From NCBI RefSeq assembly GCF_003334335.1, contig NZ_QOWQ01000179.1: 506 bases of DNA. The stretch is one strand, 5' to 3'. Of this stretch, positions 1 to 506 are shown piece after piece. The number at the start of each line of letters is the position of its first letter. Positions within the stretch are counted from its first letter, which is position 1. The notes beneath the pieces were generated by a model, which was not told the origin of the DNA, searched no databases, and saw only the letters and a list, made by a program, of their open reading frames with translations. The DNA is from Escherichia coli (GTDB lineage: Bacteria > Pseudomonadota > Gammaproteobacteria > Enterobacterales > Enterobacteriaceae). The translations under genes were made by a program, and so were the position numbers.

Positions 1-506
1 CTGAGCTCGGTTTCAAGCGCCAGCATGGCTGCATGCGCCCGGTCTTCCTGGCGCTCACCGGCAGACACCTTCACACCGGACGGCTTTTTCTGCGTCGACT
101 CATAATCCTTTTTTGCCGACGCCATCAGCGTGTTGTAATCCGCCTGCAGGATTTTCCCGTCTTTCAGGGCCTTATTCAGCTCTTCCTGCCGGGCGGTATA
201 TTTCTCCAGTGGCGTCAGCAGGCGCTCATACGCCTTCTGCGCCTCTCCGGTATACTTCAGCTGTGACGACTCACGCTCAGCCCTGTCCCTTGCCGCCAGT
301 TCACCGGCTTTTTCCATATCCGACTGCAGCGTTGCCGCTGCCAGACCCAGACGGGCATTTTCCCGGTCATCCCATGCGCCCTGAAGGTTGGCCCGGAAAG
401 AGGAGGTTTTACCGCGGCGCTGGCTCCGGCTCTGGTACCACTGCCATTTTTTATCCGCCTCATCAAATGCCTTCTGCGCACTGGCGAGCATATCCGCTGA
501 GGATTC
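1..506 (-). CDS. H: Phage tail tape measure (tail length determination) protein, lambda gpH family; internal fragment, truncated at both window edges
   Basis: Seen directly: the minus-strand frame with first complete codon at 506..504 has no stop codon over 168 codons (506..3; bases 2..1 are a partial codon). Translation: ESSADMLASAQKAFDEADKKWQWYQSRSQRRGKTSSFRANLQGAWDDRENARLGLAAATLQSDMEKAGELAARDRAERESSQLKYTGEAQKAYERLLTPLEKYTARQEELNKALKDGKILQADYNTLMASAKKDYESTQKKPSGVKVSAGERQEDRAHAAMLALETEL. The two ORFs in the supplied track are shorter and lie in other frames. Composition is rich in A/E/K/Q/L/R, as expected for a helical tape measure protein, and GC is about 58.7% (297/506 by hand count). From memory, not a search: the stretch LKYTGEAQKAYERLLTPLEKYTARQEELNKALKDGKILQADYNTLMASAKKDYE closely matches the central region of phage lambda gpH, and the upstream WDDRE motif aligns at the same spacing (39 residues) as in lambda. 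The gene symbol H is the lambda name for this family; this is a homolog, not lambda H itself. Confidence 0.9.

Follow-up and report, generated by a model that had tools for sequence, protein, structure and literature searches.

Results

Coding frame of the window

The DNA studied here is a stretch of 506 nt (58.7% GC; hereafter, the window), which almost certainly corresponds to codons 319-486 of the 857 codons of an ortholog of lambda gene H, the tail tape measure protein (TMP) gene, in a lambda-like siphovirus that is most probably a prophage in an E. coli chromosome. The gene is read from the minus strand, and the fragment is internal, with neither the start nor the stop codon of the gene inside nt 3..506. 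The following features were assigned.

3..506, minus strand: fragment of the tape measure CDS, 168 codons, residues 319-486 of 857 aa (open frame and homology)
3..263, minus strand: conserved segment, TMP residues 400-486, present in both allele classes (84% aa identity to lambda)
264..506, minus strand: variable cassette, non-lambda allele ('...AFDEADKKWQWYQSRSQRRGKTSSFRANLQGAW...'), TMP residues 319-399 (29% aa identity to lambda)
348..374, minus strand: conserved island WDDRENARL (WDDREKARL in lambda) inside the cassette (alignments; 69% nt identity to lambda)

A six-frame stop count gave no stop among the 168 codons of minus-strand frame 0 (nt 506 to 3) and 1-13 stops in each of the remaining five frames. 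At 58.7% GC, such an open frame by itself is just moderately unusual: the analytic chance that one given frame is fully open at the composition of the window is 0.0017, and of 5000 mononucleotide shuffles, 148 (3%) had one or more of the six frames fully open. Thus, independent support for the frame was needed, and homology and selection were decisive. When the window was compared with PhiR12_1, an Stx2a phage, and lambda, 66 of the 87 substitutions fell at third codon positions of the minus frame (positions 1, 2, and 3, respectively: 1, 2, and 14 against PhiR12_1; 5, 2, and 29 against the Stx2a phage; 8, 3, and 23 against lambda). The first-pass annotation had described a stop-free minus-strand frame across the window, and the stop count, the homology described below, and this third-position bias confirm it.

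The plus strand also contains a long open frame. In the frame that begins at nt 2, the single stop is the very first codon (nt 2-4), and 167 open codons follow (nt 5-505); over the full length of the H gene, one antisense frame has an open run of up to 326 codons. From this openness one might propose that the plus-strand frame is the real gene and the minus frame incidental, but the chance of this is negligible. The substitutions pile up at the third positions of the minus frame (14 of 17, 29 of 36, and 23 of 34 in the three comparisons), and this pattern excludes the plus frame as coding, since each wobble base of the minus frame is the middle base of a plus-frame codon. In addition, the evidence from homology and annotation is entirely for the minus frame, and a promoter scan found no promoter-like site on either strand of the window. 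A GC-rich gene with strongly biased codons is expected to leave long frames open on its antisense strand, and the plus-strand frame was rejected as a shadow ORF of such a gene.

There was no evidence of a second feature embedded in the window. An Rfam scan of the window at permissive E-values found nothing, and a promoter and terminator scan of the window found none. The repeats in the window were just pairs of short matches (10-21 nt each), as might arise by chance or from the biased codons of a helical protein.

Identity of the encoded protein

The 168-aa translation aligned with residues 321-482 of lambda gpH (PDB 8IYK chain H; E = 2.9e-44) and matched PHROG_24, 'tail length tape measure protein', at profile positions 514-669 of 1151 (E = 3.9e-33). 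Thus, the earlier assignment of the product to the lambda gpH family was borne out. An HMM search had been proposed as a check of this assignment: the PHROG_24 profile was positive, and the Pfam scan of the 168-aa fragment gave no significant match. The sole NCBIfam match of the fragment, LIC12611_phage_tail, was likewise far below threshold (19 bits against a cutoff of 480). The position of the window explains both results, because it lies mostly between the two Pfam domains of the full-length protein and thus between the modelled domains.

The full-length gene was taken from the E. coli chromosome NZ_CP027340, where it is 2574 nt long and encodes 857 aa; it extends beyond the window by 954 nt on the upstream side and by 1114 nt on the downstream side. 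The 857-aa protein scored 359 bits against TIGR01541 (tape_meas_lam_C; cutoff 104.75) and contained the Pfam domains TMP_2 (PF06791; residues 54-256, E = 8.1e-70) and Tape_meas_lam_C (PF09718; residues 631-705, E = 1.1e-21). Lambda gpH (NP_040595; chain H of PDB 8IYK, 8IYL, and 8K35) has 853 aa, against 857 aa in the TMP of the window; the two share 78% aa identity overall, the same Pfam and TIGRFAM domains, and the same place in the gene order G-T-H-M-L-K-I-J. The GC content of the H gene (58.9%) equals that of lambda H, and that of the adjacent host genes is 51.4%.

The gene is an ordinary one, already known, correctly annotated in RefSeq, and very common. The window was 100% identical over 506 nt to CDSs that bear the annotation 'phage tail tape measure protein' on 11 complete E. 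coli chromosomes, and 2631 of 5426 complete E. coli genomes had a megablast match to it. Gene H of Escherichia phage PhiR5_1 was 100% identical over 504 nt.

Gene neighbourhood in records with the identical sequence

For the gene order and for the intactness of the gene, we relied on further records in which the identical sequence occurs. We inspected the chromosomes NZ_CP027340, NZ_CP058571, and NZ_AP045176 and the phage PhiR5_1, with lambda for comparison. In all four contexts, the gene order was Z-U-V-G-T-H-M-L-K-I-J, as in lambda. As the gene lies on the minus strand of the window, G and T are expected beyond nt 506 and M-L-K-I-J before nt 1.

On the condition that lambda synteny holds, the first-pass annotation had placed G and GT, with their programmed frameshift, beyond position 506, and G and T were present there in the identical-sequence contexts. 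At the locus in NZ_CP027340, the slippery heptamer of lambda, GGGAAAG, in the register G GGA AAG, was found near the end of G at 18602-18608, and the -1 frame was open through T, which gives a G-T fusion of 290 aa. The genes M, L, K, I, and J, which had been predicted to lie before position 1, were likewise present in the predicted orientation, and K, downstream of H, encodes a C40 peptidase. RefSeq annotates G and T on NZ_CP027340 as separate CDSs, with no fusion product.

Upstream of the tail module in NZ_CP027340, we found the genes for the capsid, decoration, protease/scaffold, portal, terminase, and lysis proteins and the Q antiterminator, and downstream of it J and tail-fibre genes, followed by the host gene aspS. 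The element in NZ_CP027340 is thus a full lambdoid prophage module. Together with the phage genome of PhiR5_1, it agrees with the lambda-like prophage or phage setting that had been proposed from the window. Tape measure proteins also occur in tailocins and gene transfer agents, and the gene might be thought to come from such a non-phage tail-like machine (an F-type tailocin or a gene transfer agent). However, the tail genes in NZ_CP027340 are contiguous with the terminase, portal, protease/scaffold, decoration, major capsid, lysis, and antiterminator genes, and the sequence of the window is also found in complete phage genomes. An origin from a tailocin or a gene transfer agent is therefore extremely unlikely, and we retain the tail module of a lambda-like prophage or phage as the source.

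Intact and broken homologs

The earlier caution that the intactness of the gene and of the prophage cannot be judged from the window itself still stands. Many E. coli prophages are defective, and the window could come from a decayed TMP pseudogene in a cryptic prophage, with these 168 codons intact, a lesion in another part of the gene, and no production of functional tails. In favor of such decay, at least 33 records of Stx2a-converting prophages carry a 92%-identical homolog, which is broken in the one examined (LC727840), and in E. coli EC2 a neighbour of H, the tail assembly gene I, has a frameshift according to its annotation. However, the TMP CDS is annotated as intact in the three inspected chromosomes with 100% identity (857, 840, and 857 aa), the identical sequence is carried by PhiR5_1, a member of the temperate PhiR phages, whose records name the hosts used for propagation, and strong purifying selection is visible. 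We thus consider it improbable that the window derives from a decayed gene, and prefer to read it as part of the TMP gene of a lambda-like prophage.

The broken homologs differed from one another. About 33 Stx2a-converting records matched the window at 91.8%, with split tblastn hits, and LC727840 was the sole one aligned. Its H gene (547-3125) has a 1-nt deletion at codon 349, at about nt 413 of the window (CGCGGTAAAAC -> CG-GGGAAAAC), and, after repair of this deletion, a stop at codon 526. H in LC727840 therefore looks pseudogene-like, unless these are assembly errors.

In the record of PhiR5_1 (8047-10619), H appears as two CDSs, with a 1-nt deletion at codon 745, in the C-terminal part and outside the window; none of the 5426 complete E. 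coli genomes carried this deletion. In PhiR12_2_star (201-2773), H is also split into two CDSs, with the break in the C-terminal (gpHC) part, again outside the window. Both phages have E. coli C as the stated host, and their breaks in the gpHC part are different. The identity of H to the NZ_CP027340 gene was 98.8% in PhiR12_2_star and 96.2% in PhiR12_2; thus, PhiR12_2_star is not a simple point mutant of PhiR12_2 in H.

In E. coli EC2 (NZ_CP058571, 5098-7620), which contains the window at 100% identity, the TMP has 840 aa, with a 17-aa in-frame deletion at residues 37-53, and gene I (9395-9975) is the one annotated as frameshifted. The EC2 protein is a natural ruler-length variant in a possibly defective prophage. 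In the unannotated record of Escherichia phage 204576 (CP025907, 557-3112), about 20 single bases that close homologs have are missing at points scattered through H; this looks like an assembly with many errors, which is unsuitable for inferences about the frame.

A variable cassette at residues 319-399

Nowhere in the whole protein is the divergence from lambda greater than in the part encoded by the first 81 codons of the window (nt 264-506). In blocks of 42 nt, the nucleotide identity to lambda was 19-52% in the cassette, 69% in the block of the conserved island, and 74-98% in the rest of the window. The cassette has a net gain of 6 aa relative to lambda, where it is located at 2497-2739 of the locus; in PhiR68_2, it is located at 1246-1506. 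The conserved segment contains an invariant stretch in the alignment columns, KYTARQ.ELNKALKDGKILQADYNTLMA, and a 2-aa deletion (KQ) relative to lambda at nt 80/81 of the window, near residue 460. The aa identities to the TMP of the window, in lambda numbering, were as follows.

Lambda: residues 1-318, 87%; 319-399, 29%; 400-482, 84%; 483-end, 79%
PhiR68_2 and PhiR34_1: residues 1-318, 89%; 319-399, 70%; 400-482, 86%; 483-end, 80%
ev243: residues 1-318, 89%; 319-399, 78%; 400-482, 86%; 483-end, 78%
2B8: residues 1-318, 90%; 319-399, 75%; 400-482, 86%; 483-end, 82%

A compensated frameshift of similar DNA was considered as the cause of the divergence from lambda and was refuted, since the DNA alignment indicated a true replacement of sequence; the block was replaced and did not diverge gradually. 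Some tblastn hits were split by single-base gaps, which lie in the sequences of the Stx2a phages and phage 204576, not in the window.

A tblastn search with the 82-aa cassette query found 61 phage records, all with at least 60% identity. Among the 5426 complete E. coli genomes, 1223 (about 23%) carried the allele of the window and 3008 the lambda allele, and the two allele classes are about 30-38% identical to each other. Within the allele class of the window, dN/dS was 0-0.12, and dN between the classes was 0.65-0.80. The cassette differed from that of PhiR12_1 by 8 synonymous and no non-synonymous codon changes, and its dN/dS against ev243, 2B8, and PhiR68_2 was about 0.07-0.12. With such purifying selection within the class, the cassette is not a freely drifting spacer.

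PhiR68_2 has 96-100% aa identity to lambda outside the cassette and 38% inside it. Between PhiR68_2 and lambda, dS was saturated over the cassette, against 0.016 for the conserved segment next to it. As PhiR68_2 is nearly lambda outside this block and divergent within it, the block has been exchanged by recombination. Judged from these alignments, the cassette is one of two discrete, block-exchanged alleles of about 80 residues.

Comparison with the PhiR phages

The PhiR series of temperate phages was reportedly isolated by Brenes and Laub in 2025. The TMPs of PhiR5_1 and PhiR12_1, 2, 4, and 5 (PV340545, PV340549-54) come from this series. The nucleotide identity to the window was 99.8% in PhiR12_2_star and 96.6% in PhiR12_1, 2, 4, and 5; in PhiR12_1, the one PhiR12 phage examined in this respect, the cassette was 100% identical in amino acids to that of the window. 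PhiR68_2 (PhiR68.2; PV340576), PhiR34_1, ev243, and 2B8 have a cassette of the same class as the window (70-78% aa identity, against 29% for lambda), and the PhiR68.2-type cassettes share with it the motif AFDEADKKWQWYQSRS.RRGKTS.F.ANL.GAW. On the basis of the cassette sequence, the window carries the ΦR68.2 allele class. The likeness is limited to the class: about 30% of the residues differ between the PhiR68.2 cassette and that of the window, and over the rest of the TMP the identity to lambda is 96-100% for PhiR68.2 and 79-87% for the TMP of the window.

Predicted structure

An AlphaFold2 model of the 168-aa fragment, based on a shallow alignment of 6 sequences, consisted of helices at residues 3-28, 35-115, 121-139, and 149-167, with a mean pLDDT of 79.5 and values below 50 for residues 142-168. 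The almost entirely helical fragment predicted by this model fits a tape measure protein.

Discussion

Expected role of the protein in the lambda-like tail

What the protein does is taken from the established biology of lambda (PMC12617516), to which the deletion work of Katsura reportedly contributed. By analogy with lambda, the G and G-T chaperones would help to load the protein encoded at this locus into the tail as it grows. Inside the gpV tube, the protein would form an extended and mostly helical multimer, and its length would set the tail length. Its C-terminal part would be cleaved off to give gpH*, and at infection the protein would be ejected ahead of the DNA and would form, or help to form, a channel across the periplasm and inner membrane.

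In lambda, gpH (853 aa) dictates the length of the tail tube, and gpH* fills the lumen of the gpV tube following the C-terminal cleavage (PMC12617516). Six copies of gpH were seen near the tail tip, and most of gpH*, including the residues equivalent to the window, was experimentally unresolved (PMC12617516). The same study considers gpH the prime candidate for the trans-envelope channel, and AlphaFold3 hexamer models of gpH* 1-319 and 320-691 fit the density of the periplasmic channel (PMC12617516). The window starts at the 319/320 split chosen in this study of Ur-lambda and covers the start of the second gpH* segment.

Possible function of the cassette

Recent work has connected the lambda TMP to the passage of DNA across the inner membrane. 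Saxton et al. (bioRxiv 10.1101/2025.11.03.685801; Nature 2026, PMC13190303) reported that a TurboID-ManZ fusion labels the lambda TMP by proximity during injection, and that susceptibility to SNIPE, a membrane nuclease, tracks both dependence on ManYZ and the TMP clade. ΦR68.2 was the sole exception in the lambda TMP clade: it differs in TMP residues 300-400, enters independently of ManYZ, and has reduced sensitivity to SNIPE, the link of these properties to the 300-400 region being a correlation (PMC13190303). In addition, the substitution A304V, which adjoins this region, lets generalist lambda infect ΔmanYZ cells (PMC13190303). The published link between the region and the phenotype thus consists of one phage and one point mutant, with no swap experiment reported (PMC13190303), and PhiR5.1 and the PhiR12.x phages are absent from the text and the supplementary strain table of that paper.

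The purifying selection on the cassette and its exchange as a block, taken with the correlation in that paper and with the bypass by A304V close to the region, led us to a tentative reading, which we consider possible but doubtful: the cassette at residues 319-399 could be, instead of an inert spacer of the ruler, an exchanged module that chooses the entry route through the inner membrane (ManYZ-dependent or ManYZ-independent) and hence the exposure to SNIPE. If this is true, the phages and prophages with the allele of the window, which occurs in about 23% of complete E. coli genomes, would be ManYZ-independent like PhiR68.2.

Significance

The gene itself flags only the tail module of a lambdoid prophage or phage, which is routine for E. 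coli, with a match in about half of the complete genomes. Wider relevance is limited to the fact that the window spans the single sharply bimodal segment of lambda-type TMPs. If the link between this segment and the entry phenotype is causal, the allele of the window would predict the entry route of the phage and its susceptibility to defence, and would be useful for the typing of prophages and for understanding how siphovirus DNA passes across the inner membrane.
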